From Thermoanaerobaculia bacterium (GTDB lineage Bacteria > Acidobacteriota > Thermoanaerobaculia > Multivoradales > UBA5704), in assembly GCA_035536455.1 (NCBI GenBank), contig DATLOC010000053.1:135478-199477 (forward strand): 64,000 bases of DNA, in the 5' to 3' direction. The notes under the pieces were generated by a model that saw only the letters and a list, made by a program, of their open reading frames with translations, did no database searches and was not told where the DNA came from. The first letter of the stretch is position 1; each line of letters opens with the position of its first letter. Positions 16,016 through 58,667 of the stretch are shown here, piece after piece. The translations under genes and the position numbers were made by a program.

Positions 16016-16026
16016 GACCTCGACGT

Positions 16027-16104
16027 GATCCGCCCCCGGCGGCTCGCGAACGTGAGCCACCGTCATCTCGCGCCGACTCATCCGCTCCATCCTACGGGCA
16101 GGTG
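16027..16104. repeat. 78-bp element, copy 1 (2 mismatches to copy 2 at 21501-21578)
   Basis: ATCCGCCCC[C/T]GGCGGCTCGCGAACGTGAGCCACCGTCATCTCGCGCCGACTCATCCGCTCC[A/G]TCCTACGGGCAGGTGA. On the minus-strand RNA it folds CGGUGGCUC-ACGUUCGC-GAGCCGCCG. Confidence 0.8.
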
Positions 16105-17048
16105 ACCCCGTTCTTGTACCCGATCAGCGTGCCGTTCGTCGCCGTGTACGACGGATCCGTGGTGAACGTGGTGGTCGAGCCGAAGGCCGGCGTGTAGGCC
16201 GAGCCCGGCTGGATCGAGTACTTCGACACTCTGGCGTGCGGATGGCAAGCGGGGTTCTCCTGCGCGGCCAGCCAACTGCTCAGGAGCACCGGCTTGTCGA
16301 ACATGCCGGGGTCGATGACCATCGCCAGCTCGGCGCTGACGCCCAGCTTCTTGATGGTGATGCGCACCCGCACGAGGGGAGCGACGTGGTACCACCAGGT
16401 CACGCAGCAGCCGCCCCATTTGTTCGCCTGCACCGACAGCCGGTCGAAGTTGTCGACGGCAAAGCTGAACACCTTCTCGCAGCAGTAGCCGTACTGGGTG
16501 GTGATGATCCGGCGCATCTCGTGGGCGCGCGCGTAGCAACCATCCCTCACGTACTGGAACGGGATGCAGTTCGGCACGCCGAACGGCCCCGGCAGGTGAC
16601 ACGACTGTTGCGCGCAGAAGTCGAAGATCGCCTTGGCCGTCGCGTAGTTCGGGACGACGCGCTTGCAGAGCAGGAAGACCGGGATCTTCAGATAGTGCTC
16701 GACGATGTTGAAGGTCGTCGGATCGATCTTCGAGAGGTCGATGTCATGGATCTTCTCGGGCCTCTCGACGTAGGTCCGGCGGCGTTGGAACTCCTCCAGC
16801 TCCACACCGCGGAGGACGTGGATACGCCCGATGAAGCCCCGCCCCTCGTCGAGCTGAGCTTTCACCGGAGCGCCCTTCTCGAAGGCCTCCTCGAGCCGGG
16901 CCGTCGAGGCCTCGGCGGTCCTGGTGGTGGCCGACCGGAAGGTGTAGATCCGCTGCTTCTCGTTGAACAGATACTCGGTCTCCTGCTCGCCCCTGCCCCT
17001 GCGAATGGCGGCGATCGTCAGGAGCTCCTCGCGCGGTTCCCTGGTCAT
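16092..17048 (-). CDS. protein-glutamine glutaminase (protein glutaminase, Cys-His-Asp) with an N-terminal pro-region and no recognisable signal peptide
   Basis: FQYVRDGCYARAHEMRRII...CCEKVF...GGCCVTWWYHVAPLV...VIDPGMF parallels the Chryseobacterium protein-glutaminase catalytic core (…VDGCYARAHKM…CEKQF…CCVAWSYHVA…IIDPSLF). Confidence 0.75.
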   Translation of the reverse strand: MTREPREELLTIAAIRRGRGEQETEYLFNEKQRIYTFRSATTRTAEASTARLEEAFEKGAPVKAQLDEGRGFIGRIHVLRGVELEEFQRRRTYVERPEKIHDIDLSKIDPTTFNIVEHYLKIPVFLLCKRVVPNYATAKAIFDFCAQQSCHLPGPFGVPNCIPFQYVRDGCYARAHEMRRIITTQYGYCCEKVFSFAVDNFDRLSVQANKWGGCCVTWWYHVAPLVRVRITIKKLGVSAELAMVIDPGMFDKPVLLSSWLAAQENPACHPHARVSKYSIQPGSAYTPAFGSTTTFTTDPSYTATNGTLIGYKNGVTCP

Positions 17049-17143: not shown

Positions 17144-19429
17144 GTGAAACGCATGAAAGCGGTTGGGATCAAGCAGCTGCAAGCCCTCGTCCTCGCTTGC
17201 GCCGCTTGGCTCGCCGTGGGCGCGGCACTCGCCGGCGCGGAGGAGGCGCTGGCCGCCGCCGAGGTGAGCGGCACCGCCGTCGGGCCCGGGGGCGAGCCGG
17301 CGGCGGGGGCGGTGGTCGCCGTCGTCGCCGCCCGGCGCAGCGAGCCGTCGGCGGTGGTGGTCGCCGGCGCCGGCGGGGCGTTCGCGGCGACGGTCCCCGC
17401 CGGCACCTACGCCCTGACCGCCACCCATCCGCAGTGGACGGCCGCCTGGTCGCCGCCGGCTGCCGTGAGCGGCAAGGTCGTTCGCGACCTGCGCCTCCTG
17501 GCGCCGGACGAGGGGGTCCTCCTCGAAGGCGACGTCCGCGACTCGACGGGGGCCGCCCTCGCCGGCGCGGAGGTGCACTGCATGCGCACCATCTCCAAGG
17601 GCGACCTCTTCGTCGGCCGCGCCGACGGCGCCGGGCGCTACGCGCTGCGCCTGCCGTCCTCGCCCTACTACGGCTGCCACGCGGCGGCCGACGGGCTGCG
17701 CTCGCCGCTTGTCGAGGTCGACGTCGACGTCGCCGCCGGAGCGGTACGGCGGGACCTGGTGATCCGCCGGCCGGCTCCCCCGCCGCAGGCAGTGGTGGAT
17801 TGGATCCGCGAGCAGGCGATCCCGCTGCTGACGACGCGCGCCGGGCACGGCTTCTCCGACCTGGCGCCCTTGCGCGACGTCGTCGGCGACGCCCGGGTGG
17901 TGGCCCTCGGCGAGGCCACCCACGGTACGCGCGAGTTCTTCCACCTCAAGCACCGCCTCTTCGAGTACCTCGTCGCCGAGCTCGGCTTCACCGTCTTCGC
18001 CATCGAGGCGAGCTGGCCGGAGTCCGAGGCGGTGGACGAGTACGTGCGGACGGGCCGGGGGAACCCCGCCGAGGCGCTCGCCGGGCTGTACATCTGGCCG
18101 TGGAACACCGAGGAGGTGCTCGACCTCATCCGCTGGATGCGGCAGTGGAACGCCGTGCCGGGGCACCGGCAGGTGCGCTTCTACGGCTTCGACGTCAAGG
18201 CCGCCGCGGTGGCGGCCGAGCGCCTGGCGGCGCGGCTCGGGCAGATCGATCCGGCGCTCGCGGCGGAGGCGGGGCCCGCCCTCGCCCGGCTCGCCGCGGC
18301 CGAGCGCGCCGCGCCCGAGCTCGCCGACGCCGACGAGGCGGAGTACCAGGCCGCCGTGGCCGGGGTGGCCGCGGTGCTGCCGCGGATCGCCGCGCGGCTG
18401 CCGCAGCCGGCGTCCGCCGCCGACCGGCAGGCGATCGTCGACCGGCACTACGTGCAGGTGCTCGAGCAGTACACGCGGCTGCGCGGCCCCGGGGGCGGCG
18501 GTCCGGTGCGCGACCGCGGCATGGCCGACAACGTGCGCTGGATCGCCGACGTCGCCGAGCCCGGGTCGCGCGTCGTCGTCTGGGCGCACAACTACCACGT
18601 CAACGTCTTCGCGGAGGGCTCGCTGCCCTGGATGGGCCACCACCTCGAGGCGGCGCTGGGTAAGGACTACCTGCCGGTGGGCTTCCTGTTCCACCACGGC
18701 TCGTTCCAGGCGATGGACCGCACCGGCGGCCCCCGCGGGCTCAAGGAGTTCACGGTCGGCCCACCCGCGGCAGGCACGCTCGAGGACACCTTCGAGCGCG
18801 CCGGCTGGCCGCTCTGCCTCCTCGACCTGCGCCGCCTGCCGGCGGAGGGCCCGGTCGCCGAGTGGCTCCGCGCCCCCCAGCTGTCGCGCGCCGTCGGCTC
18901 TTCTTTCAGCGGCGAAGCCGACATGGCGATGGAGCTGGTGCTGCCCGAGGTGTACGAGGCGGTGGTCTACGTCGAGGCGACGACGAGGGCCCGACCCAAC
19001 CCGCGGTGCAGCCGTAGGACGGGGCGGAGTTCACGTAGCGGGGCTCCGGGGGGTTCCCGGGAGGCGCGAGATGCGGAAGGAACGCTTGCGGATAAGGGAG
19101 CGCGACGTCCGGATAGATCCGCGAGCCGTCCGGATACATCCTCAGCGCGTCCGGATAGATCCGCGGGTCTTCCGGATCTATCCGCGGCGCTTCCGGATGG
19201 ATCTGCGGCGCTTCCGGATCTATCCGCGGGCGGTCCGGATACATCCTCGACGCTTCCGGATATATCCCCCGCGCTTCCGGATCTATCCGCCGCGCTTCCG
19301 GATACATCCGCAGGCCCTGGGGAGATGTCCGGAGGCCTCCCGGCGACCTCCGGAGAGGACGCGAAGAGGTCCTCGCCGCCGCCGGGCTCGTCACGCGGCG
19401 TCGTCAGCTTGCCCAGGAGGGTCCGATGA
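17144..19429 (+). CDS. secreted erythromycin-esterase-family (Ere) hydrolase with two N-terminal CarboxypepD_reg-like domains; the ORF continues in frame through tandem-repeat array A
   Basis: Signal peptide; LGEATHGTREFFHLKHRLFEYLV (Ere motif)...AVVYVEATTRARP; then a LPDLSAA-type heptad tail; stop in ATGA with the downstream ORF. Confidence 0.7.
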   Translation: MKRMKAVGIKQLQALVLACAAWLAVGAALAGAEEALAAAEVSGTAVGPGGEPAAGAVVAVVAARRSEPSAVVVAGAGGAFAATVPAGTYALTATHPQWTAAWSPPAAVSGKVVRDLRLLAPDEGVLLEGDVRDSTGAALAGAEVHCMRTISKGDLFVGRADGAGRYALRLPSSPYYGCHAAADGLRSPLVEVDVDVAAGAVRRDLVIRRPAPPPQAVVDWIREQAIPLLTTRAGHGFSDLAPLRDVVGDARVVALGEATHGTREFFHLKHRLFEYLVAELGFTVFAIEASWPESEAVDEYVRTGRGNPAEALAGLYIWPWNTEEVLDLIRWMRQWNAVPGHRQVRFYGFDVKAAAVAAERLAARLGQIDPALAAEAGPALARLAAAERAAPELADADEAEYQAAVAGVAAVLPRIAARLPQPASAADRQAIVDRHYVQVLEQYTRLRGPGGGGPVRDRGMADNVRWIADVAEPGSRVVVWAHNYHVNVFAEGSLPWMGHHLEAALGKDYLPVGFLFHHGSFQAMDRTGGPRGLKEFTVGPPAAGTLEDTFERAGWPLCLLDLRRLPAEGPVAEWLRAPQLSRAVGSSFSGEADMAMELVLPEVYEAVVYVEATTRARPNPRCSRRTGRSSRSGAPGGSREARDAEGTLADKGARRPDRSASRPDTSSARPDRSAGLPDLSAALPDGSAALPDLSAGGPDTSSTLPDISPALPDLSAALPDTSAGPGEMSGGLPATSGEDAKRSSPPPGSSRGVVSLPRRVR
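19083..19395. repeat. tandem array A: about 11 units of ~21 bp with consensus TCCGGAT-NN-ATCCGCGGCGCT (inverted-repeat core GGAT-NN-ATCC)
   Basis: Read directly: tccggatagatccgcgagccg / tccggatacatcctcagcgcg / tccggatctatccgcggcgct ... Paralogous to array B1. Confidence 0.85.
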
Positions 19430-19660
19430 AAGCCCGTCGTGTCGTCAAAGGCTGCGCCGTCGTGCCGCTGTTGGGCGTTCTCGGGATCGGCGCGCTGTTC
19501 GGCGCGCTCTGGCTGGAGCACCGGAGCAAGACGACGCTGCCGGCGCCCACCGGGCCCTTCGCGGTCGGCCGCGCGAGCTCGGTGTGGGCCGGCGGTCCGG
19601 GGACCGGGCGCGAGCTCGCGGTCTGGATCTGGTACCCGGCGGCGGCGGGCGATCTGATGC
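19426..19660 (+). pseudogene. N-terminal ~78-aa fragment of a PAF-acetylhydrolase/lipase-family alpha/beta hydrolase (truncated)
   Basis: GGAGGG RBS plus ATG. MKARRVVKGCAVVPLLGVLGIGALFG...PTGPFAVGRASSVW...RELAVWIWYPA, then the sequence degenerates. No continuation in any frame before the tyrosinase stop. Confidence 0.45.
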
Positions 19661-19832
19661 GGCTACGGCCGACTACCTGCCCGCTCCCCTGCGCGCGGAG
19701 ATCAAGCGCTCGCGCGGCGCGCAGATCAGCAAGTTCCTGACGCGAGACCTGTCGCGGGTGCGTGTGCACAGCACGCGGGACGCCGCCATGTCGCTGCGGC
19801 GGCGTTCATACCCGGTGGCGGTCCTGCGCGAA

Positions 19833-21281
19833 CTACTGCAGCTGTTCCTCGCGCCTCAGCTTGTCCTGCTCCTCCTTCGGCGGCTGCGGCATGGCGACAT
19901 CGACCGCAATGCTGATTTCACCGACGGTGACGTCGGCGCGCACCTCCGCGGGTAGCGAGCGACCCTGCACTTCGATGCCCGACACCGGCACGAACGTGAC
20001 CTGCAGCTTCGTCGGGTCGCCGGCGGCGCTGATGGCCTTGTCGATCGGGTAGACGAACTCGGCCGGGTGGTAGTGATCCCGCCGCGTCTTGACGCCGGCG
20101 CCGAACAGTCCGAGCACTCCCACGAAATAGGGGCCGGCCGGATCCGGCTTGAGCCCCGCCGGTCCGACATAGACTTCCCAGACGGCGCCGGGCTCTGTGC
20201 TGGCTTCAACCCCCTTCACTTGCAGGACCGCGGTCTGCCCGGGAGCCTTCGCGATTTCCAGAAGGCGCGCACCCATCGCCTTGTCCGCGGCTTCGGGGTA
20301 AAGCGGCAGGCTCACCGGCACCTTCGACAGCCTGAAGGGTTTCGCGATTCGCACGATCACCCTGATATCGAAAATCTCCGGGTCCCAGATGCGCGGGCAG
20401 TACTGCTCGACCTGCGCGGGCTCTCCTTCATAGACGTAGCTGAGCTGCCTGGCCGCGCGCAGAACTTCGCAGCTGGTCATCCTTACTTCCCGGCAGCACT
20501 CGTCGAAGAAAGTGAACGACGTATTGCGCCAGGCCGCATCGCCGAGCGGATTGCTCCGGCCGCCGCCTTGCGCCAGCCACAGGTTCCACTGTCGATCGAC
20601 GTTGGAATGGTGCGCCCAGAAAATGGGATCCTGCGCCGCCGAGCTCACGCAGCACATGTTGCCACTGACCGCGCCATGAACGCTGCCGTGCGGACCGTTG
20701 ATACCGGATTGCGCATTGTAGAAATCGAGGAGCAGGTTCGCGTTCGTAACCGCCGTCCCCAGGGACGTCGAGATCGAACCGGTGCCGTTGTTCATGGCGG
20801 CGTTGCGGCTCGGATCGTGCAGCGCGCTGCCGACGACGCGGAACGCGGGCGGCAACTGGCGCTGCGCGGGATTGGCCCAATCCCAGTAGGGAAGGGCCCA
20901 GTCGTGCATGCGGGAATACTTCCTGACGATTCGTTCGAACCAGTAGAGATACATTCTGTGCCACGACCAGAAGAACTTTGGATCGGTGTGGCAGGTGTTC
21001 CAGGCGGTCTGAACCGGCGTCAGCGTCGTGCCATGAATGGCCGCCTGGTACATCCAGCTGCAAGGATTGCTGGTCGGCAGCGCTCTCATCGCAACGATCG
21101 CGCGGCGGTAGCCCCTGAGAACCGGATCGCTCTCCGCCATCGTGAACGCGTTGCGCCGCACGGTGGGTCCGGCCGCATAGTCGGCGAGCGCAGGAATGCC
21201 GGTGAATGGTTGCGACATCGCTCCCAGCAGGGCGGCGGCGCCGGTCTTCAGAGCGTCGCGACGGTTGAATCGAATGGTCAT
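19833..21281 (-). CDS. tyrosinase (type-3 copper), Tat signal, with a C-terminal lid-like extension
   Basis: MTIRFNRRDALKTGAAALLGA. CuA region HGTT...FFWSWHRMYLYWFERIV. CuB region HGSVHGAVSG...DPIFWAHHSNVDRQWNLW. GGAGGG RBS. Confidence 0.85.
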   Translation of the reverse strand: MTIRFNRRDALKTGAAALLGAMSQPFTGIPALADYAAGPTVRRNAFTMAESDPVLRGYRRAIVAMRALPTSNPCSWMYQAAIHGTTLTPVQTAWNTCHTDPKFFWSWHRMYLYWFERIVRKYSRMHDWALPYWDWANPAQRQLPPAFRVVGSALHDPSRNAAMNNGTGSISTSLGTAVTNANLLLDFYNAQSGINGPHGSVHGAVSGNMCCVSSAAQDPIFWAHHSNVDRQWNLWLAQGGGRSNPLGDAAWRNTSFTFFDECCREVRMTSCEVLRAARQLSYVYEGEPAQVEQYCPRIWDPEIFDIRVIVRIAKPFRLSKVPVSLPLYPEAADKAMGARLLEIAKAPGQTAVLQVKGVEASTEPGAVWEVYVGPAGLKPDPAGPYFVGVLGLFGAGVKTRRDHYHPAEFVYPIDKAISAAGDPTKLQVTFVPVSGIEVQGRSLPAEVRADVTVGEISIAVDVAMPQPPKEEQDKLRREEQLQ

Positions 21282-21500
21282 GTGCGGGTTCCCTCCATCG
21301 AAGGCAGCGGATTGATTGGCGAGAGACGGGCGGGCGGCATCGAGGAGATCGCGTAGCGCCTGCGTCGCGGCAACGCGAAAAGAGCGAGCGACTGCAGACC
21401 TCGACTGGGTCATCTCCGTGTCCCCTGGTGTGCCATTCCATCGCCCGGGTGTTATTGCGCCGATAATAGTCCCGCGTTCGACTGGATCGCAAGTCGCTGG

Positions 21501-21578
21501 ATCCGCCCCTGGCGGCTCGCGAACGTGAGCCACCGTCATCTCGCGCCGACTCATCCGCTCCGTCCTACGGGCAGGTGA
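21501..21578. repeat. 78-bp element, copy 2 (~220 nt upstream of the tyrosinase start)
   Basis: See copy 1. Preceded by a possible degenerate remnant of the glutaminase 3' end (…IEKFTCP*). Confidence 0.8.
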
Positions 21579-21663
21579 ACTTCTCGATCACCCCACAGGC
21601 TGCCCAGAACAGGGCCGCCGCCATCCGCCGCTCGGGACTGGCAACACGCTGTTAGAGCACTAC

Positions 21664-21960
21664 CCGGATAAGGGAGCGCGACGTCCGGATCTATCCGCGA
21701 GCCGTCCGGATACATCCTCAGCGCGTCCGGATCGATCTGCGGGCCTTCCGGATCTATCCGCGGCGCTCCCGGATATCTCCCCAGGCGTTCCGGATACATC
21801 CTCGACGCTTCCGGATATGTCCCCCGCGCTTCCGGATACATCCTCAGGTGTTCCGGGCCTATCCTCAGGTCCTGGGGAGACGTCCGGAGGCCCTCCGGTG
21901 ACCCCGGAGAGGACACGCGGAGCTTCGGCGGCTGCCGGGTTCTCCTTTCGTTCGTTAGGG
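21664..21960. repeat. tandem array B1 (paralog of array A; TCCGGAT-NN-ATCC core, ~10 units)
   Basis: Same first unit ggataagggagcgcgacg and the same unit order as array A. Confidence 0.85.
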
Positions 21961-22019
21961 ATTGAAGGTGCGGACGCTCCGCGACGCCCGCCGAGCGCCG
22001 GCGACCGGCCGGCGCGCGG

Positions 22020-22300
22020 CGCCCAATGGCCTCCGGGAGGCGTGGAACGTCCTGCGGCGGCTTCGGAACCCTTTCCCGGAGCGTGGGAATGGATTGCGCG
22101 GGCCCGGGAACAGGTTGCGGAGCGCCGGGAATCCTTTCCGAGCGGCTCGGAATACGTTCCGCGGCGCGCGCAACTCGTTCCCGGCGTCGCGCAATCGATT
22201 CCCGGCACCGCGCAGGAGGTTCCGGAGGGCGCGCAGGAGGTTCCGAGGTCCCGGGAGGACATAGGGAGGCTCCACCGGGGCGTCTGAGGGTCGCACGGGG
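22020..22300. repeat. tandem array B2 (~12 units of ~21 bp, core GGAA-N4-TTCC)
   Basis: cggaaccctttcccggagcgt / gggaatcctttccgagcggct / cggaatacgttccgcggcgcg / caatcgattcccggcaccgcg ... Confidence 0.8.
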
Positions 22301-22329
22301 ACATTCCGGGGCTTCCGGCGGGCGTTACG

Positions 22330-22560
22330 CCACCTTCTCCAGGGGTTTGTGGGTCGTCGGAGGGAAATCTCGGACGCCCGGAGGGAGATCTCCGAGGGCG
22401 AGAGATAGATCTCCGGCTATGGAAGATGAGTTACGGCGGCTCCGCGAGAGATCCCGGGCGATGGCTGGTTCATCTGCGGAGCTCTGAGACAGGTCTCCAG
22501 GATCCGGAAATGAATCTCCGGCACCCCCGGATACATCTCGGACGGTCCGAGATAACTCGT
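22330..22560. repeat. tandem array B3 (~8 units of ~21-22 bp, core GAGATCTC/GGAGATCTCC)
   Basis: ggagggaaatctcggacgccc / ggagggagatctccgagggcg / agagatagatctccggctatg ... Confidence 0.75.
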
Positions 22561-22645
22561 GCGCCGCCGCGTGAAGCCCCTCCTTCACCTGCTTTTCCTT
22601 ACGCGACCTTCGCCAGGTGCTCCTTGGCGGGCGGGGGGACGGCCC

Positions 22646-23476
22646 CTAGCCAACGAGGAGAGACGCGGCGATCGCTCCGGCGGTGGCGACCAGGCAGAGG
22701 AGGGCGCCGACGGCGTGGTCGGTGCGCTCCGGCTTCAGCGGGTCGAGCCAGACGGCCGCGAGGTAGCCGCCGGCGAAGCCGCCGAGGTGGGCCCAGTTGT
22801 CCACCCGCGTCGCCACGAGGCCGTAGACGAAGAGCATCACCGCGTACCCCCAGGCCTGGGTGGTGAGGGCGCGGCTGCCGCCGCGGCGGCCGTAGCGCAC
22901 CAGCGCCCCGAGCAGGCCGAAGATCGCCGCCGACGCCCCTACCGTCACCCGCGCCCCGCCGAGGAAGGGGAAGAACGCCGCCACCGCGCTGCTGAGCAGG
23001 AACCCCGTGACGCTGGCGAGGGTGTAGAGGATCACCAGGCGGCCGGCGCCGTAAAACTCGGCGGTGAGCGGCGCGAGCTGGCGCAGCCAGAGCAGGTTGA
23101 AGAAGAGGTGGAGGAGGTCGCCGTGCAGCCAGCCGGCCGAGAGCGGAGTCCACCAGCGGCCGAGCTCGAAGACCAGGATCGAGCCGCTCGCCCCGAAGCG
23201 GGCGAGGGCCTCGGTGGTGGGCGGGAAGATGGAGAACGGGCCGCCCGCCGGCCCCGGCCCGCCGCCGGCGACGAGCGTGGCGGCGTAGAGGACGATGCAC
23301 CCCCCGAGCACCAGCTGCACGAACCCCAGGTCGCCGCCGAAGCGGCGCAGGGCCCCGGCGAAGCCCCACATCCCCGGCCGCAGCCGCCCGCAGTTGAAGC
23401 AGCGCTCGTCGGCGACGCCGACCAACCGGCCGCACGACGGGCAGACGACGGCGCCGGTGCGTTGGCGGCGGAGCAT
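22646..23476 (-). CDS. rhomboid-family intramembrane serine protease with an N-terminal zinc ribbon
   Basis: CPSCG...CFNCG; catalytic GASAAIFGLLGA (GxSG) and AHLGGFAGGYL (His). Confidence 0.8.
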   Translation of the reverse strand: MLRRQRTGAVVCPSCGRLVGVADERCFNCGRLRPGMWGFAGALRRFGGDLGFVQLVLGGCIVLYAATLVAGGGPGPAGGPFSIFPPTTEALARFGASGSILVFELGRWWTPLSAGWLHGDLLHLFFNLLWLRQLAPLTAEFYGAGRLVILYTLASVTGFLLSSAVAAFFPFLGGARVTVGASAAIFGLLGALVRYGRRGGSRALTTQAWGYAVMLFVYGLVATRVDNWAHLGGFAGGYLAAVWLDPLKPERTDHAVGALLCLVATAGAIAASLLVG

Positions 23477-23504
23477 GCGCCTACTCTAGAACGGCGCGGG
23501 GGAG

Positions 23505-26500
23505 CTACAGCGGCTCGGGCTGCGGTTGGGAGGCCGGCTCGCCGCCGGCGACCGGCCGCCGGCCGCGGCGGAGGGCGGCGACGACGGCGTCGCGGGCGTC
23601 GTCGAAGAGGGTGTAGAAGACCGGCACGACGAGGAGGGTCAGCAGGGTGGCGGTGGTCATGCCGCCGATCAGGGTGAAGCCGAAGCTGGTGTAGGAGAGG
23701 CCGATCGAGTTGGAGCCGCCGACGGTGAGCGGGACCATGCCGCCCATCGTGGTCAGCGCCGTCATCATGATCGGGCGGAACCGCCGCTCGGTGGCGAGGA
23801 GGAGGGCCTCGCGGCGCGGGTGCCCCTCTTCGCGCAGGCGGATCACGCAGTCGATCAGCACGATGCCGTTGTTGACCACGACGCCGATCAGCAGCACCGC
23901 GCCGACGAAGCCCAGGACGTCGAGGTCGAGGCCGGTCGCGGCGTGCATCCAGACGACGCCGATCGAGGCCAGCGGGATGGTGAGCACGATCGACAGCGGC
24001 AGGATGAAGCTCTCGAAGAGGAACCCCATCAGCAGGTAGACGAAGACGATCGACAGGAGCCCGGCGAAGAGGAGGTTCTTCATCTCCTCGTCGCCGCCGG
24101 CGCGCTCCGGCGGGGCGCCGAGCGAGATCCCCTCGGGCAGGTCGAGCACCGCGGCGAGGGACTCCAGCCGCTCGCGCGTCTCCTTCTCCTTGCCCTCTTG
24201 CATCTCGACGGTCACCGGCCGGGCGACGCGCTGGTCCTCGCGCTGGATGCGGCGGGAGGCGGGGAGGAAGCGAACGTCGGTGAGCGCGGCGAGGGGGACG
24301 ACCCCCGTCGCGGACGGCACCTCGAAGCTCGCCAGCTCCGAGAGGCTCTCGCGGTCCTCCTCCTCGAAGCGCACCCGCACCGGCACCTGGCGGCCGTCGC
24401 GCTGGTAGCGCGGCAGCGCCTGGCCGCGCAGCGCGTAGCCGACGACGCCGGCGATGACCTCGGGGTCGACGCCCTGGCGCTGGGCGCGGGCGCGGTCGAC
24501 GACCAGCGCCAGCTCGTCGGGCGGGCGCTCGCCGGCGCGGCGCACGCCGAGCACCCCCGGCACCTGCGCGAAGAGGGCCTCGAGCTCCTCCGCCGTCTCC
24601 TCCAGCGCCGCGGCGTTCTCGCCGTAGAGGGTGACGGCGTGCACGCCCTCCTCCTTCGCCTCGTCCTCGGCCTGGTCGCCGGTGAAGAGCTTGAAGCCGG
24701 GGCGCTCCGGCAGCGCCGCCATCACCCGCTCCGTGGCCTCACGCGACGTCACGCCGGCGGTGGCCGGCTGGGTGAACCAGCCCTCGATCTCGCCGTAGGT
24801 GGCACGGTGGAAGAGGAACCAGCCTTCCAGACCCAGCTCCTCCTTGAGCCCTTCGACCGTCTTCTCGGCCTGGAGGAACCAGGCCTCGGCCTCCTCCAGC
24901 GTCGTGTTGGCCGGCATCTCGACCGCGATCCCCCAGCCGCGCGCCTCGCTCTCCTGGGTGGGTGAGAACTTGACCCGCTGCTTCGCCACGGCGCCGGTCG
25001 CCGCCAGCACCAGGAGGAGCCCGAGCACCACGTCCAGCCGCCGCCCGAGGGCCACCGCCAGGAGCGCCGTGTAGCCGCGGTTCAGGCGCCCGAAGGTGCC
25101 CTCGTAGAGGCGGGCGAGGAGGACTTCGACGCGGCGCCAGGCCCGCCGGTGCCCCGGCTCCGGCGCGGCGCCGTTCTCGCGCTGCGCCGGCAGCGTCAGG
25201 TAGACGGCGAGCGGCACCGCCACCAGCGCCACGAGGAGCGAGGCCAAGAGCGCCACCGAGACCGGGATCGAGAGGCGGAGGAGGAAGAACTGCCCTTCGC
25301 CCTCGACCAGCGACACCGGCAGGAAGACCATGACGCTGGTGAGGGTCGCCAGGGTGATGGCGAGGGCGATCTCGCCGGCACCTTCGAGGCAGGCCTGCCG
25401 CCGCGGCACGCCCGCGAGGTGGAGGCGGTGGATGTTCTCGGCGACGACGATCGAGTTGTCCACGAGCATCCCGACCGAGATCATCAGGCCGAGGAGCGAC
25501 AGCACGTTGAGCGTCTCGCCGGCGAAGTACATGACGGTCAGGGCGAGGAGCAGCGAGAGCGGGATCGAGAGCGTGATGATGAGGGTCATCCGCAGCCGGC
25601 GGAGGAAGAAGAAGAGGACCGCGACGGCGATGGCGCCGCCGATGAAACCGCTGTCCACGACCTTCCGCAGCGACTCCAGGATCACGTCGCCCTGGTCGAA
25701 GAGCGGGATCATGCGCACCGTGCGCAGGCGCGGGTCGCGCTCCAGCCGCCCGACCAGGGCGCCGATCGAGCGCGCCACCTCCAGCGTGTTGGCGTCCCCC
25801 TCCTTGAGCACCACCACCGCCACCGCCGGCCGGCTCAGGGCCCGCGCCCGGTAGTTGCGCTCGGCCTCCTCGTAGCGCAGGGTGGCGATGTCGCCCAGCC
25901 GCACGGTCGGGGCGACCGGCCGGCGGGCGAGCGCTTCGAGGTCGGCGTAGCGGGCGACCGAGCGCAGGAGGAGCTTGTCGCCGCCGGCGCGCACGCTCCC
26001 CAAGGCGAGGGTGAAGTTGTCGGTGGCGAGCCGGCGGCCCAGCTCGTAGATGTTGAGCCCCGCCGCCTCGGTGCGGTCGCGGTCGAGCTCGATCAGGATC
26101 TCCTTCTCCTCCAGGCCGTCGGTCTCGACCGCGGCGACGCCGTCGATCCGCTGCAGCGGCAGGACGACGCCGTTCTGGATCAGGTTCCAGGCGTCGGTCA
26201 GCTCCGGATCGACCGCCAGGCCGAGGACGTAGACCGGCACGCCGCTCTCGTCGTGCTTGCGGATGAAGATGCGGTCGGCGTCGCGCGGCAGCCGGGCGCG
26301 CGCGCGCTGCACGCGGTCGCGCACCTCGCGGTAGGCGACGTCCATGTCGCTGCCCGGCTTGAAGGCGAGCCCGATGCGGCCGAAGCCGGGGACCGCGGTC
26401 GAGTCGAGCCGGTCGAGGCCGCGCACCGTCGCCAGCTCCTCCTCGAGCGGCAGGACGATCTTCTCCAGCACCTCCTCAGGCGGCGCGTCGGACCAGGGGA

Positions 26501-55734: not shown

Positions 55735-57516
55735 TCAGGCCGCCTCTTCGTCGGCGTGGCCGTTCTGCGTCAGGTAGGCGGCGGGCGCCTCCGGGACGCT
55801 GTACTCGTAGGGGCCGCGCACCACCGTCGGCACGTGCGCGAAGTTGCCGTGCGGGATCGGCGGCGAGGGGGCGGCGGCCCACTCCAGGGTCGTCGCCTCC
55901 CAGTGGTTGTCGGCCACGCGCTTGCCCTTCGCCATGCTCCAGAAGAAGTTGATGATGAAGGGGATCTGCGCCAGGCCCAGGCACCAGGCCGAGACCGACA
56001 TCACCTCGTTGAGCCAAAGCACGTCCTGGGCGTGGGCGTACTGCTGGCCGCCGTCGTAGAGGCGGCGCGAGACCCCGGCCAGACCCTGCCAGAACATCGG
56101 CATGAAGACGCCGTTGATGAACAGGAACGAGGGCCAGAAGTGGATCTTCCCCAGCAGCTCGTTCATCTTCTTGCCGGTCACCTTCGGGAACCAATAGTAG
56201 ATGCCGGCGAACATGGCGAAGATCGTCCCCGGCGCCACCACGTAGTGGAAGTGGCCGATGACGTAGTAGGTGTCGTGGAGGTGGATGTCGGCGGCGGCGA
56301 GCCCGAGCGGCAGCCCGGTGAGGCCGCCGATGCCGAACATCGGCAGGAAGGCGAGGGCGAAGAGCATCGGCGTGTTGAAGCGGATCGAGCCCCCCCAGAG
56401 CGACAGGAAGAGGGCCGAGAGGATGATCACCGAGGGGATCGAGATGATCATCGTCGTGGTCTGGAAGAAGGTCGAGATCGCCGTCCCCATGCCGGTCAGA
56501 AACATGTGGTGGGACCAGACGATGAACGACATGAAGCCGACGAAGATCAGCGAGTAGACCATCGAGCGGTAGCCGTAGAGGGGCTTCCGCGTGTTGTTGG
56601 TGATGACCTCGGCGACGATGCCGAAGGCGGGGAGGATGAGGACGTAGACCTCGGGGTGGGCGAGGAACCAGAAGAGGTGCTGCCAGAGCAGCGGGCTGCC
56701 GCCCCCGGCGACCTCGAGGGCCTTGCCCGAGATGACCAGCCCCTCCGGCAGGAAGAAGCTGGTGCCGGCGACGCGGTCCAAGAACTGGAGGATCGCCGCC
56801 GCCTGCAGGGCCGGGAAGGCGAGCAGCAGCAGGAACGAGGTCACGAACTGGGCCCAGACGAAGAACGGCAGCCGGAACCAGGTGAGCCCCGGAGCGCGGA
56901 GCTGGATGATGGTGACCAGGAAGTTGGTGGCGCCGAGCAGCGAGGAGAAGATCAGGAAGAGCATGCCGACCAGCCACCAGGTCTGGCCGGCGGTGGCGAT
57001 GTTGGAGAGCGGCGGGTAGGAGGTCCAGCCCGAGTTGGCGGCCCCGCCCGGCGCGAAGAAGCTCGCCAGCATGACCACCCCGCCCACGAAGTAGAACCAG
57101 TAGCTCGCCATGTTGAGCTTGGGGAAGGCCATATCGGGGGCGCCGATCTGCAGCGGCACGACGTAGTTGCCGAAGGCGCCGACGGCGAGCGGCACGATCC
57201 CCAGGAAGACCATGATCGTGCCGTGCATGGCCCCGAGCTGGTTGTAGAACTCGGGGAGCATGATGCCGCCGGTGGCCTGGCCCTCGCCGAGCAGCCCGCC
57301 GATCAGCGGCAGCGGCTTGCCTGGGTAGGCGAGCTGCCAGCGCATCATCATCATCAGGGTGAAGCCGAAGAGCAGGAAGGCGAGGGCGGTGAAGCCGTAC
57401 TGAATGCCGATCACCTTGTGGTCCTGCGAGAAGACGTACTTGCGCCAGAAGCCCGGCTCGTCGTGGTGGGCGGCGTCGTGCGCGTGCCCGCCCCGTTCCT
57501 CGACCAGTGCACTCAT
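55735..57516 (-). CDS. coxA: cytochrome c oxidase subunit I
   Basis: Start MSALVEERGG; 12 TM helices; conserved His ligands (WAHHMF, HFHYV). Track ORF 55735..57648 is over-extended. Confidence 0.85.
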   Translation of the reverse strand: MSALVEERGGHAHDAAHHDEPGFWRKYVFSQDHKVIGIQYGFTALAFLLFGFTLMMMMRWQLAYPGKPLPLIGGLLGEGQATGGIMLPEFYNQLGAMHGTIMVFLGIVPLAVGAFGNYVVPLQIGAPDMAFPKLNMASYWFYFVGGVVMLASFFAPGGAANSGWTSYPPLSNIATAGQTWWLVGMLFLIFSSLLGATNFLVTIIQLRAPGLTWFRLPFFVWAQFVTSFLLLLAFPALQAAAILQFLDRVAGTSFFLPEGLVISGKALEVAGGGSPLLWQHLFWFLAHPEVYVLILPAFGIVAEVITNNTRKPLYGYRSMVYSLIFVGFMSFIVWSHHMFLTGMGTAISTFFQTTTMIISIPSVIILSALFLSLWGGSIRFNTPMLFALAFLPMFGIGGLTGLPLGLAAADIHLHDTYYVIGHFHYVVAPGTIFAMFAGIYYWFPKVTGKKMNELLGKIHFWPSFLFINGVFMPMFWQGLAGVSRRLYDGGQQYAHAQDVLWLNEVMSVSAWCLGLAQIPFIINFFWSMAKGKRVADNHWEATTLEWAAAPSPPIPHGNFAHVPTVVRGPYEYSVPEAPAAYLTQNGHADEEAA

Positions 57517-57649: not shown

Positions 57650-57890
57650 TCGCTCCGGTACGGAGATGGAAGCGCCGGTACCGTAATGGACGCGCCGTTA
57701 CGGTACCGGGCGCCCCGTTACCGTACCGGGCGCCCCGTCACCATACCGGGCGCCCCGTTACCGTACCGGGCGCTCCGTTACCGTAATGGAAGCTCCGTTA
57801 CCGTACCGGACGGACCGTTACCGTAACGGACGCTCCGTCACCATACCGGACGCGCCGTGTCCATAACGGACGCGGCGGTGCGTTCGCGGC
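57650..57890. repeat. tandem array C (~10 units of 20 bp; CGTTACCGTACCGGGCGCCC-like; cores GTTAC-C-GTAAC / GGTACC)
   Basis: cgttacggtaccgggcgccc / cgttaccgtaccgggcgccc / cgtcaccataccgggcgccc / cgttaccgtaacggacgctc ...; divergent promoter region between coxA and a plus-strand membrane gene. Confidence 0.85.
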
Positions 57891-57932: not shown

Positions 57933-58667
57933 ATGTCCGAAGGCACCGGGAGGTCGGTCCTGTGGTGGCTGTGCCTGTTCTTCGCGCCGCTGGTCCTGCT
58001 GGTCATCGAGCTGTTCCACCCCGCGGGGTTCACCAAGGACCCCGGGATGTTCGCGTACCTCTCCCAGCCCGAAGCCCACAGCCCGCAGCACGGGGCGCTG
58101 GCCTACTTCGGGCCACGGTGGTGGTTCACGCTGCACATGATCCAGACGTTGCTGATGGGGCTGGTGGCGGTTGGGCTCTGGCTCTTGGTCGACGGCTTCG
58201 GGCCCAGCGACCGGCGGCCGGCCGGGATCCTCGCCTGGCTCTCCCGCGTCGCGGCATTCGTCTTCCTCATTTACTACACGGCGCTCGACTCGATCGGCGG
58301 CAGCGGTCTGGGGCGCACCATCGAGCACACGCTGGCGATGAACCTGCCGCCCGACCAGCTCGCGGCGGTGGCGGCGGTCCTCGACGCCACCTGGACCGAC
58401 CCCTGGGTCGGCGGCGTGGGCTCCTTCATCAGCGAGACCGGCTCCTGGGCGGTCTTCATCGCGGCGCTGGCCGCCGCCGGGGCCTTGTTCGCGGCGAAGA
58501 AGGCGCCCTGGCCGCCGCTCGTCCTGCTCGTCGCCTTCGGCTGGGAGCTGCAGGTCAGCCACGCCGCCCCGCACGGGCCGATCGCCTTCGCCCTGCTGCT
58601 GGTCGCGGCGTTCTGGCTCTGGTGGGTGTGGCGGCGGCGGCCAGCGGGCCGTATGCTGGACGCCTAG
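57933..58667 (+). CDS. hypothetical polytopic membrane protein
   Basis: MSEGTGRSVLWWLCLFFAPLVLLVIELF... has multiple TM helices. Confidence 0.55.
   Translation: MSEGTGRSVLWWLCLFFAPLVLLVIELFHPAGFTKDPGMFAYLSQPEAHSPQHGALAYFGPRWWFTLHMIQTLLMGLVAVGLWLLVDGFGPSDRRPAGILAWLSRVAAFVFLIYYTALDSIGGSGLGRTIEHTLAMNLPPDQLAAVAAVLDATWTDPWVGGVGSFISETGSWAVFIAALAAAGALFAAKKAPWPPLVLLVAFGWELQVSHAAPHGPIAFALLLVAAFWLWWVWRRRPAGRMLDA

Follow-up and report, generated by a model that had tools for sequence, protein, structure and literature searches.

In the genome assembly of a Thermoanaerobaculia bacterium (GCA_035536455.1), the space between a rhomboid protease gene and a tyrosinase gene is largely taken up by tandem repeats of about 21 bp, which raises the question of what these arrays are and whether they have anything to do with the tyrosinase. 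We analysed 64,000 nt of contig DATLOC010000053.1 (positions 135,478-199,477, forward strand); this whole stretch is referred to as the window, and coordinates are positions within it. The arrays belong to what seems to be an undescribed family of tandem repeats, 21 bp in unit length, non-coding and self-complementary, and packaged as cassettes that, as far as sequence comparison can tell, are dispersed across Thermoanaerobaculia genomes.

Layout and reality of the arrays

Three neighbouring arrays of 21-bp period lie at 21660-22600, B1R (nine units), B2 (~11) and B3 (~10, degenerate), where the initial annotation had counted 10, 12 and 8 units. The interval ends at the stop codon of the rhomboid gene (22646-23476, reverse strand; Pfam Rhomboid). 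All three arrays are far beyond chance and none is coding. TRF places B1R at 21684-21869 (period 21, 8.9 copies) and pieces of B2 at 22077-22253 (period 21), and makes no call for B3. Self-identity at lag 21 is 0.68 for B1R, 0.60 for B2 and 0.47 for B3, compared to maxima of 0.39-0.42 in dinucleotide shuffles, and a two-unit B1 core pattern has 19 matches in the window and none in 100 shuffles. Dyad symmetry within each array is modestly significant, with the observed value reached by 0-28 of 200 column-permutation nulls. The arrays first described upstream of tyrosinase are real; their units are indeed ~21 bp long with differing dyad cores, and they are not CRISPR. The interval is packed with repeats, as had been stated, only over 21660-22600: 21282-21659 is unique DNA, and the periodicity is absent from the stretch 21282-21660. 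Two further arrays had been missed, another B1 copy (19045-19385) and one with a period of 20 bp (57655-57874).

Each cassette spans ~300-400 bp and consists of a conserved head, about ten tandem 21-bp units and a conserved tail. B1R, B2 and B3 are three orphan cassettes arranged head-to-tail in the interval, with a fourth, B1L, past the tyrosinase gene; B1 and B2 are discrete elements of ~350-400 bp each that recur at unrelated loci of related Acidobacteriota/Thermoanaerobaculia assemblies. B1L (19045-19385, reverse strand, given as the sense of the native operon) is a complete B1-type cassette with its head at 19045-19107, ten 21-bp units at 19108-19317 (TRF 19108-19311, period 21, 9.7 copies) and its tail at 19318-19385. 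It scores 410 bits against the element profile (nhmmer) and is orthologous to L006:7238-7647 with 88% identity. Carried with it is the stop-codon stub of a Pterin_4a-like gene (…AA*, GCCGCGTGA; 19386-19400, reverse strand), a sequence that also follows the cassette in L020, there with the full Pterin_4a-like gene. In the stretch that separates B1L from the tyrosinase 3′ end, open reading frames and translations indicate a frameshifted and truncated hydrolase-like gene fragment (19426-19830, forward strand), whose 104 residues have no Pfam match.

B1R (21660-21935, reverse strand) has a truncated head and comprises a degenerate unit (21660-21683), nine units (21684-21872) and a tail (21873-21935); it scores 319 bits (nhmmer) and shares 83% identity with B1L and 74-80% with other copies. 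The palindrome first proposed for B1 holds as a short dyad, GGAT-NN-ATCC, but the conserved core, TCCGGAT-A-N-ATCC-N-C, is asymmetric. B2 (21936-22324, reverse strand; ~11 units at 22021-22262) is not built of palindromic units, as had been suggested, but of two mirrored half-arrays, whose arms at 22095-22152 and 22157-22214 form an inverted repeat. Its outward Shine-Dalgarno (SD)-like end, AAAGGAGAACCC, is the reverse complement of ~21940-21952. B2 is 91% identical over ~395 bp to L017:2-366, and matches the array upstream of a small gene, X, in L094 with an nhmmer E-value of 2.6e-68. Between B2 and B3 lies a Pterin_4a-like 3′-end stub (…PLEKVA*; 22325-22342, reverse strand), matching the …ELEKVA* and …ALEKVA* ends found directly before arrays in L014 and L094. 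B3 (22343-22599, reverse strand; units at ~22343-22560 plus a tail) has GAGAT-NN-ATCTC-type cores and a weak nhmmer similarity (E 6.5e-10) to a GGAGAT-type array of L025; a second small-gene 3′-end stub (…KEHLAKVA*; 22600-22630, reverse strand), read from the sequence, separates it from the rhomboid stop. The remaining array, A57 (57655-57874, forward strand), has ~11 units of 20 bp with a CCGTTAC-C-GTAACGG core (TRF period 20, 10.4 copies; lag-20 identity 0.81). A 244-aa membrane-protein gene starts 58 bp beyond its end, and the array is also upstream of a divergent cox operon (neighbours by Pfam).

Collapsed, expanded or chimeric repeats in a short-read assembly could in principle have produced both the triple array and the B1-tyrosinase-B1 order. 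Logan unitigs of the same run are interrupted at the arrays, the GC content of the tyrosinase segment is deviant, and 21540-22315, which contains B1R and B2, is covered by this assembly alone and by no independent contig. However, independent Logan contigs (SRR8544467) match 19296-21540 and 22315-24924 at 100% identity, recovering B3 (contig L001), both unique junctions and the tail of B1L. Long-read assemblies (OY969474.1 and ENA contigs) contain equally sized B1- and B2-type cassettes, and the 17% difference between B1L and B1R marks them as distinct copies. We consider an artefact very improbable.

The idea that the arrays encode heptad-repeat peptides, extending either upstream genes at the C terminus or X at the N terminus, is effectively refuted. 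It draws on four of six frames being open across most B1 copies, on the esterase frame continuing through B1L in the window, and on two proteins, one a database entry with an array-derived N-terminal extension fused to X (P0127) and the other a called protein that is array-derived (P0001). Open frames are trivially expected, because the GC-rich unit repeats are stop-free; nor are all six open, as had been claimed, since one frame of B1R contains six stops and four frames of B3 are interrupted by stops. Third-position GC content (GC3) of the arrays is 0.5-0.8 in every frame compared to 0.96-0.98 in resident genes, which bears out the interval as non-coding, and no conserved reading frame crosses the arrays at related loci. 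Variable positions are contiguous rather than 3-periodic, and the period of A57 is 20 bp. The esterase read-through is due to a 1-bp indel absent from L006, where the reading frame closes 45 bp short of the head. Downstream of the array come a strong SD and a start codon, the frame in phase with X is closed inside the L096 array, and four-frame translation matches just one predicted protein among 5.8 billion.

Tyrosinase and the native site of the cassettes

The initial annotation had considered the arrays as a device controlling the tyrosinase gene (19833-21281, reverse strand; Tat-type signal; Pfam Tyrosinase, PPO1_DWL and DUF7868), which comparison with other loci does not support. Four tyrosinase orthologues (83-87% identical) in four other contexts have no arrays, and the homology of tyrosinase loci elsewhere to the window ends at 21478. 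In MAG OY969474.1 the orthologous esterase-rhomboid locus has a single B1 between the genes, directly against the stop codon of the rhomboid gene, and lacks tyrosinase, B2 and B3; the rhomboid gene itself is 95.6% identical to L006:7634-8000. B1 and B2 also occur at unrelated loci. By these comparisons the arrays are not tyrosinase-specific and have no conserved link to it. The gene, with a GC3 of 0.82 compared to 0.96-0.98 in its neighbours, looks like a foreign, low-GC3 import between two B1 copies. The only sigma70-like promoter match of the interval, TTGCGA-18-TATTAT (TTGACA-type; 21463-21492, reverse strand), lies within the unique DNA (21282-21659) downstream of the arrays and is the candidate tyrosinase promoter.

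Where the cassettes belong is shown by their occurrence elsewhere. B1 is found at six loci in the 5.46-Mb OY969474.1, as well as in a separate ENA assembly (L089) and metagenome contigs (L072 and L048), and the copies share head, units and tail and can be aligned unit by unit. The usual place of the cassettes is immediately upstream of a single small, conserved gene, X, encoding an uncharacterised 140-aa helical protein, and their native site is the spacer between it and a small Pterin_4a-like gene. In all six independent X loci examined (L020, L094, L096, L097, L099 and L100), about 10-12 units of 21 nt lie between the Pterin_4a-like stop and the SD of X, with the same period but five different cores. 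For instance, L094 and L096 are 80-85% identical on both flanks and have no similarity across the array. The array therefore behaves as a swappable cassette, in which period, unit number and edges are kept while the core differs completely between collinear clusters. The Pterin_4a-like and X cluster has been found so far only in Thermoanaerobaculia-type genomes.

The window copies have stubs of both flanking genes at their ends, and non-native copies retain a handful of upstream-gene codons (…LEKVA*) together with the SD end found before X; this marks them as relics that recombination has spread, not elements built for their present neighbours. In the window they are orphan remnants at a recombination hotspot. 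They probably do nothing specific for tyrosinase; they are recombination-prone blocks of homology, and at most would put a structured barrier between the rhomboid gene and the co-directional tyrosinase gene. Their distance from the tyrosinase promoter is at most 1.1 kb, so an upstream effect at the DNA level may exist.

Such dispersal would also be seen if the cassettes were a purely selfish or neutral MITE/REP-like repeat bearing a minisatellite, with no cellular function even upstream of X. This repeat would spread by in-trans transposition or by illegitimate or homologous recombination and be tolerated in intergenic DNA, its palindromic cores being kept by templated (quasi-palindrome) mutation and gene conversion. 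Dispersed copies lie near many IS256, IS3, integrase and toxin-antitoxin genes, one head is interrupted by IS256, and the architecture is that of the BrickBuilt MITE, which has a leader, 23-nt repeats and a tail in 19 intergenic copies. Change outside the core is faster than at synonymous sites: between orthologues the rest of the unit is 72% identical, compared to 88-92% at nearby third codon positions. However, the core positions are 96.6% identical, being kept although the spacers are randomised. The cassettes showed neither terminal inverted repeats nor target-site duplications, and copies end not at precise termini but in variable stubs of the two native flanking genes. The array holds the same operon position with a conserved unit number in six of six X loci, and the B1 unit number is narrow (9-11 in eight copies) compared to 1-23 in BrickBuilt. 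We regard the selfish repeat as improbable.

A possible RNA leader or phased duplex

For the native site we favour a structured, recombination-prone leader cassette, a reading resting on sequence and predicted folds to which we give a probability of roughly 55%. Fold energy is lower than in within-unit shuffles for 11 of 11 arrays (z -3.4 to -10.4; B3 -5.0, A57 -9.7), and for B1L, B2 and A57 also than in dinucleotide shuffles (z -4 to -9). The B2-type consensus forms a predicted hairpin of ~125 bp (128 pairs) with four compensated pairs, which depends on the order of the units. Consensus scans find promoter-like matches upstream of arrays, while in the X loci they find none between array and X, and no terminators. 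From the self-complementarity of units in all array types and promoter-like sites only upstream, we infer that the native array would be transcribed within the leader or intercistronic RNA of X. Such RNA would fold unit-on-unit into a long, periodically interrupted hairpin, which would set the processing, stability or translation of the gene downstream.

Several observations go against an RNA fold. The RNAalifold covariation term for B1 is unfavourable (+2.07), its conserved core is asymmetric with complementarity limited to GGAT/ATCC, and sense and antisense strands fold about equally well. In L099/L100 a variable stem position is G-C nine times and A·A six times, a correlated change rather than compensation. 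The strict 20-21-bp period is explained more naturally by helical phasing of a duplex than by RNA folding, unless it was inherited from an ancestral array.

Phased binding by a dimeric protein is possible, each two-turn unit being occupied by a DNA-binding protein of dimeric or iteron type. Some ten such proteins on one face of the helix would then form an operator, insulator, centromere-like or nucleoid-structuring filament, with different cores for different cognate proteins, and might act on the tyrosinase promoter from upstream. The strict period across every family (21 bp, 20 in A57) fits this, as do AT-centred dyad cores in a 72% GC genome. Twelve of 21 B1 positions are near-invariant, including asymmetric ones that pairing leaves unexplained, and the central dinucleotide and spacer are free to drift, as in operators and iterons. 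The native cluster contains an Xre-type HTH gene, but clusters whose arrays have no sequence in common encode HTH proteins of 88% identity in which the HTH motif is nearly the same. Residues of X subfamilies likewise do not follow array type, and neither of these two native-cluster proteins co-varies with the array core. No DNA-binding gene recurs beside arrays, several cores in one genome would require several cognate proteins, and the mirrored B2-type half-arrays of non-palindromic units fit a fold-back rather than identical sites. Together with the array-free tyrosinase orthologues and the lack of any rep/par gene, AT-rich unwinding element, or plasmid or phage match, this leaves phased binding unlikely and the structured leader cassette the reading that we prefer.

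Comparison with known repeat systems

The initial statement that the arrays fit no nameable repeat family was too strong, as BrickBuilt, BOX and REP/BIME-type elements offer parallels to both the head-repeats-tail build and the dispersed occurrence. Plasmid iterons and ParR/parC-type centromeres are family-specific arrays of 4-10 direct repeats of 17-22 bp, similarly phased at about two helical turns. The present arrays are instead chromosomal and multi-copy, with no adjacent rep/par gene or AT-rich unwinding region, and no plasmid or phage record is similar to them. The RNA arrays of type III toxin-antitoxin systems (ToxI/ToxN, AntiQ/AbiQ and CptIN) have 2-6 repeats of 34-45 nt, a terminator and a ToxN-family endoribonuclease. 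The likeness lies in short direct repeats directly upstream of a small protein gene, system-specific in sequence and conserved in position and architecture; the cassettes differ in their 21-nt units, ~10 copies and the lack of a detected terminator, and X, a helical hairpin, has no match resembling ToxN. In Streptococcus pneumoniae, BOX elements are modular (A-(B)n-C), dispersed and intergenic, form stable RNA folds, and have boxB units of 45 bp in 0-8 copies and no conserved home locus. The cassettes resemble them in modular build, dispersal and folding, though sequence and host are unrelated.

REP/BIME elements, including GTAG/CGTC-tagged REPs, are likewise clustered extragenic palindromic units, often just past stop codons and between co-directional or convergent genes, and are transcribed, structured and targets of recombination and IS insertion (PMC3733652). 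The cassettes have no GTAG/CGTC tag, their 21-bp units with 4-7-bp dyads are in direct rather than alternating orientation, copies number tens rather than hundreds, and none of the loci showed a RAYT gene. The BrickBuilt MITE and MITEPgRS/464 of Porphyromonas gingivalis share the build of leader, spacerless ~22-nt direct repeats and tail, dispersal in a few to ~20 copies per genome that are all intergenic, units with conserved and variable positions, spurious ORF calls and predicted secondary structure (PMC4596501). BrickBuilt has IS5-type terminal inverted repeats and 1-23 repeats (PMC4596501), whereas the cassettes, in which neither terminal inverted repeats nor target-site duplications were seen, have ~9-12 units, end in stubs of two specific genes, and have a fixed home upstream of X at which the core is swapped between homologous loci.

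Arrays in the interval upstream of tyrosinase

The interval upstream of the tyrosinase gene (21282-22645) lies, in the ORF and Pfam reading, between two minus-strand genes, one for a tyrosinase with a Tat signal (19833-21281), whose start bounds it, and one for a rhomboid protein (22646-23476), whose stop bounds it. A database protein under the name Thermoanaerobaculia is 100% identical to this tyrosinase. Within a window of about 72% GC, the first 380 bp of the interval (21282-21659) are unique DNA and hold the sole sigma70-like promoter match there (TTGCGA-18-TATTAT, 21492..21463, minus strand), and the remainder is periodic, being made up of three arrays: B1R (21660-21935), B2 (21936-22324) and B3 (22343-22599). 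TRF identifies a B1 array at 21684-21869 (period 21, 8.9 copies) and pieces of B2 at 22077-22253 (period 21), and makes no call for B3. Self-identity at a lag of 21 is 0.68 for B1, 0.60 for B2 and 0.47 for B3, compared to a dinucleotide-shuffle maximum of 0.39-0.42, and a two-unit B1 pattern has 19 matches in the window compared to 0 in shuffles. The TRF calls, together with self-identity and pattern counts above those of the shuffles, confirm the tandem arrays of ~21 bp that the initial annotation had reported upstream of tyrosinase, corrections apart.

Read along the minus strand, the rhomboid gene is followed by a gene stub (…KEHLAKVA*), B3, a second stub (…PLEKVA*) and B2, which ends in AAAGGAGAACCC and is joined directly to B1R; the unique DNA with the promoter and then tyrosinase come next. 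By this order and its gene stubs, all three arrays are orphan junction cassettes in a head-to-tail stack. Contigs from an independent (Logan) assembly of the same run, SRR8544467, match 19296-21540 and 22315-24924 at 100%, the B1R/B2 joins lying outside these stretches, and the unit counts come from a short-read MAG and could be off. Arrays of this kind break short-read assemblies, and in MAGs of high GC they give rise to heptad ORFs and gene fusions that are spurious.

The heptad-repeat ORFs that the ORF track had called across the arrays do not behave as genes in their codon usage, substitution pattern or frame conservation. Resident genes have a GC3 of 0.96-0.98, compared to 0.5-0.8 in the arrays, where no frame exceeds 0.8 and several contain stops. 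Variation in the B1 unit is confined to the central dinucleotide and a contiguous spacer of 6-8 nt, rather than falling on each third base. An erythromycin-esterase-like ORF (17144-) apparently reads through B1L (19045-19385), a B1-type cassette beyond the tyrosinase gene, but its orthologue at L006, the esterase-rhomboid locus of MAG OY969474.1, has one extra base and a TAG stop 45 bp before the element. The in-phase frame of X, the small gene behind the array at the home site considered below, is closed by a stop within the array of locus L096. A coding role is thus ruled out by GC3, by variation without a period of three, by a read-through that depends on a frameshift and by the L096 stop; the many open frames are a trivial outcome, because a GC-rich unit without stops is repeated. 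The esterase-like ORF itself (17144..19429) lacks a normal stop owing to the 1-bp difference from L006, either a true frameshift or a sequencing error, and acquires a 130-aa low-complexity tail (…LPDLSAALPD…) across B1L that would mislead annotation. A census of protein databases with a four-frame concatenated translation of the array returned one protein and was of little use beyond locus L089.

Home site and dispersed copies

The arrays belong to a dispersed family. B1L is a second B1 copy on the opposite side of the tyrosinase gene, and a scan of one genome per species finds the B1 two-core pattern at 6 loci of the 5.46-Mb Acidobacteriota MAG OY969474.1, in the Thermoanaerobaculia MAG140 and in a few other taxa; loci L089, L072 and L048 carry additional full copies. 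Aligned in register, B1 copies have in common a head of ~70 bp (…GGGGCTCCGGGGGGTTCCCGGAGAGG…GGATAAGGGAGCGCGACG), ~10 units of the form TCCGGAT-A-N-ATCC-N-C plus 6 variable nt, and a tail of ~65 bp, with identities of 73-89% between paralogues and 88-94% for orthologous pairs. B2 represents a second family, with 91% identity to L017:2-366 over ~395 bp, and B3 has a weak likeness to the GGAGAT-type array of L025. Scanning metagenomes with the B1 head/unit junction pattern gave no matches, and a rescan with a generic two-core pattern gave 44 stretches, 2 of them full family members. The arrays match nothing among plasmids, phages and viral contigs, so an origin in such elements was dropped. Nor are they a known RNA: nothing in the whole window reaches the gathering score in Rfam 15, and 18800-22800 gives chance-level matches alone (E > 0.5). 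Searches of the literature gave no account of such arrays, nor of any repeats from Thermoanaerobaculia, and the family, in a poorly studied Acidobacteriota class, is apparently undescribed.

Arrays of GGAT-NN-ATCC type with a 21-bp period also occur at L016:121-441, L038:3535-3979, L033:7477-7872, L008:5032-5261 and L052:1661-1839, in MAGs labelled delta proteobacterium, Verrucomicrobiaceae, another Acidobacteriota and Nostoc. Many of these lie at contig ends, and they have neither the B1 head nor its tail; this recurrence in Deltaproteobacteria, Verrucomicrobia and Nostoc is suggestive only and does not describe a distribution, because a query with 21-bp spacing picked out the matches. SymE-family (type I toxin) genes end ~20-110 bp from a 21-bp array at four loci (L032:3054-3419, L072:1080-1241, L015:3258-3410 and L025:7067-7228), VapBC, HicB, PemK and Phd modules and copies of IS256 and IS3 are frequent neighbours, and an IS256 is inserted in the B1 head of L017. 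When flanking ORFs were compared all-vs-all by BLASTP for a cognate binder, IS256 and the SymE-like toxin were the sole recurrent neighbours, and a recurrent neighbour as array-binding protein was dropped.

The edges of the cassettes reveal where they normally reside. One edge of several copies holds the 3' end of a small gene, a few codons with the stop (…ELEKVA*, …LELAA*, …HLAKVA*), and the other holds an outward-facing Shine-Dalgarno sequence of AAGGAGG type followed by GTG. Both flanking genes are intact at locus L020, where one belongs to the Pterin_4a family (Pfam E 1.7e-16) and the other encodes X (141 aa), a protein without a Pfam, PHROG or PADLOC match. The AF2 model of X predicts a hairpin of helices and a tail that is rich in Pro/Thr and disordered, and Foldseek finds nothing meaningful for it in the PDB. 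A search of 5.8 billion proteins yields only 18 clusters homologous to X; Thermoanaerobaculia is the one source named, and the remainder come from contigs that bear the same gene cluster. All six independent X loci that we fetched (L020, L094/L095, L096, L097/L098, L099 and L100) have ~10-12 x 21 nt between the small-gene stop and the Shine-Dalgarno sequence of X, built on five unrelated cores: CCGGAT..ATCC (B1-type), GGGAA..TTGCG (B2-type), TACCTAGGTA, GGGAATCGATCCC and GGGGAT..ATCCCC. L094 and L096 each have a cluster of 10 genes in the same order, with identities of 80% and 85% to the two sides of the array, and no detectable similarity across the ~300 bp of the array itself. Changes of array type are followed neither by the Xre-type HTH protein of the cluster, which is 88% identical and has an almost unchanged HTH motif, nor by X.

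The cluster of ~10 genes around the array (L094:1479-8255, L096:1504-7790; also in L020, L099 and L100) is apparently restricted to Thermoanaerobaculia. Before the array it encodes an 81-aa Gly-rich secreted peptide, a 430-aa zinc-finger/TPR protein, a divergent Xre-type HTH protein, a 254-aa protein and the small Pterin_4a-like protein of 71-107 aa, and after it X and proteins of 137, 314, 247 and 204 aa. Pfam, PHROG, PADLOC and NCBIfam give no assignment for them, the exceptions being the HTH protein and, by a sub-threshold TPR match, the 430-aa protein.

The arrays thus form a family of non-coding cassettes that are built from 21-bp units and have one fixed home site. Homologous loci exchange the array type wholesale, and orphan copies dispersed elsewhere retain stubs from the flanks of that site; four of these orphans surround the imported tyrosinase gene. 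What is unusual for such a family is a fixed home upstream of one conserved small gene, where period, unit number and self-complementarity are kept and unit sequence is swapped whole between near-identical clusters. Two questions become concretely testable with it: the way in which tandem-repeat cassettes are swapped, and the effect that a long leader of periodic structure has on the gene that follows.

The presence of tyrosinase among the orphans is seen by comparison with the orthologous locus L006, where the esterase and rhomboid 3' ends are 95% and 95.6% identical to those of the window and one B1 copy lies directly against the rhomboid stop codon, with no tyrosinase, hydrolase fragment, B1R, B2 or B3. 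Tyrosinase has a GC3 of 0.82 and lies within a low-GC patch, and the four nearest of its orthologues that lie on long contigs (83-87% identical) each have a different neighbourhood, none with 21-bp arrays; homology of these loci to the window is confined to 19828-21478. The low GC3, the differing array-free contexts and the L006 locus together make tyrosinase an import placed between two paralogous B1 copies, and the orphans mark recombination hotspots that hold foreign genes, here tyrosinase. B1L and B1R are 83% identical, B1L being the true orthologue of the L006 copy. We considered whether a crossover within B1 had brought in the tyrosinase segment by Campbell-type insertion, the simple form of which is unsupported, both for the full-length orthology of B1L to L006 and for the position of B1R as a more distant paralogue. 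The initial annotation had also considered the arrays as a control locus for tyrosinase, a tie that is not conserved, given the array-free orthologues and the L006 B1 copy without tyrosinase; the apparent regulatory super-array is thereby explained away.

Several smaller features were seen in the same region. Tyrosinase and ~200 bp upstream have 83-86% DNA identity to L090-L093, on contigs of 54-67% GC with wholly different neighbours, which suggests a horizontally mobile single-gene unit. Directly upstream of the promoter candidate, 80 bp (21499-21578) are ~97% identical to 16024-16108, just downstream of a Gln_deamidase_2-domain gene (16092-17048); the flanks of both copies are unrelated, the Logan contig L002 ends inside the shared stretch, and recombination may have left this stretch as a scar, or it could represent a small dispersed repeat. 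At 19426-19830 lies the signal-peptide-bearing start of an alpha/beta-hydrolase-like gene (MKARRVV…ELAVWIWYPAA), frameshifted and cut by the tyrosinase 3' end; at L089 an intact Chlorophyllase-family hydrolase gene adjoins the B1 cassette.

Constraint, folding and possible function

Core positions of orthologous B1 copies are 96.6% identical, compared to 72% for other unit positions and 88-92% for the third positions of codons in the flanking genes. Within the family the cores are thus under constraint, in a comparison that is partly circular because the core is common to all units. Across families sequence is free, yet each array is strongly self-complementary: folding z-scores are -3.4 to -10.4 against within-unit shuffles for 11/11 arrays, and -4 to -9 against dinucleotide shuffles (B1L, B2 and A57), with unique and coding controls at ~0 to +1.5. 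B2-type arrays consist of mirrored half-arrays that would form an imperfect hairpin of ~125 bp (128 pairs) whose stability depends on unit order, with 4 pairs compensated across three copies. Promoter-like sites lie upstream of arrays, with none between array and X, and the scans gave no terminator-like site. We propose that the array at its home site would be transcribed within the leader of X and act via its fold-back structure, and that exchange and dispersal would proceed by recombination in the conserved flanks and between arrays.

The weak points of the fold-back reading are that B1 has no convincing covariation and an asymmetric conserved core, that the variable stem pair of L099 and L100 is either G-C or A·A, which refutes a compensatory change within the unit, and that the period strictly follows the helical repeat. 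This last point suits phased binding of protein on duplex DNA, a substantial rival that we regard as less likely. A CsrA-type sponge for GGA, the motif from SELEX, was set aside, as GGA occurs in dyad arms on both strands and A57 is largely without it. A57 itself (57655-57874) has ~11 x 20 bp (CCGTTACCGTACCGGGCGCC), with dyads of the form CCGTTAC-C-GTAACGG and strong self-complementarity (z -9.7). It separates two divergent transcription units, the cox operon (coxI 55735-57516, minus strand) and a gene for a 244-aa membrane protein (57933-58667, no Pfam match), ending 58 bp before the start codon of the latter; no relatives of A57 were found among the fetched loci.

Comparison with known systems

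CRISPR arrays have repeats separated by unique spacers. Here units abut, their 6-8 variable bases are too short for spacers, no cas-like ORFs occur in the annotated flanks and PADLOC finds no match among the native-cluster proteins, bearing out the earlier statement that these are not CRISPR. An integron-like cassette system is ruled out, since attC sites (R''/L''-L'/R', with IntI) are unlike elements of 300-400 bp made of 21-bp units, and the only tyrosine recombinase nearby (at L014) is a generic XerC/D type below the integron-integrase cut-off. Phased direct repeats of 17-22 bp, as in iterons and centromeres, are present in all arrays (period 21 bp, 20 in A57), but no rep or par gene is found in the flanks and, with a GC of at least 64%, there is no AT-rich unwinding element.

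As in type III toxin-antitoxin systems, a tandem array lies directly upstream of a protein gene (at 6/6 independent X loci), but those systems have an endoribonuclease of the ToxN/AbiQ/CptN/TenpN family and a terminator between array and toxin, neither of which was found; unit size, terminator and toxin family all fail, and the likeness is a functional analogy only. A more speculative reading, functionally akin to such RNA arrays or to phage immunity regions, is that the 10 x 21-nt array is a cis-acting RNA (or DNA) specificity module of the uncharacterised Thermoanaerobaculia-restricted cluster, a cassette, hypervariable and open to swapping, in which unit would pair with unit or with another partner in a self/non-self, addiction or immunity-type role, the orphans being a reservoir of alternative specificities exchanged by gene conversion via the flanking stubs; we consider this a long shot.

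REP/BIME units are imperfect palindromes of 20-40 bp outside genes. The arrays here are extragenic and self-complementary, with dyads of only 4-7 bp in each 21-bp unit. REPs also reach high copy numbers in genomes with a cognate RAYT (Y1 transposase); in the loci of 8-20 kb no RAYT-like ORF recurs near arrays, and the pattern scan of the 5.46-Mb MAG gives 6 B1 loci. The palindrome of a REP bears GTAG or CGTC as a tag on one side (PMC3733652), which is absent here, the unit logo being TCCGGATANATCCNC plus N6. In P. gingivalis the BrickBuilt MITE places its 23-nt repeats between a leader and a tail and occurs as 19 intergenic copies, and the cassettes here likewise have head, tandem units and tail in multiple dispersed intergenic copies. 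A neutral MITE- or REP-like element is, with this resemblance on its side, a lesser rival and an improbable one: target-site duplications, precise ends and the GTAG tag are absent, cassette ends are variable-length stubs of the Pterin_4a-like gene and X, terminal inverted repeats appear to be lacking, with by eye a weak GC-rich similarity alone between left and right (CGGCGG..ACCTC), and the IS256 and IS3 near arrays are insertions, not parents. The home-site behaviour has no counterpart in BrickBuilt, BOX or REP/BIME, but in architecture the BrickBuilt MITE is the closest described element, with BOX and REP/BIME next.
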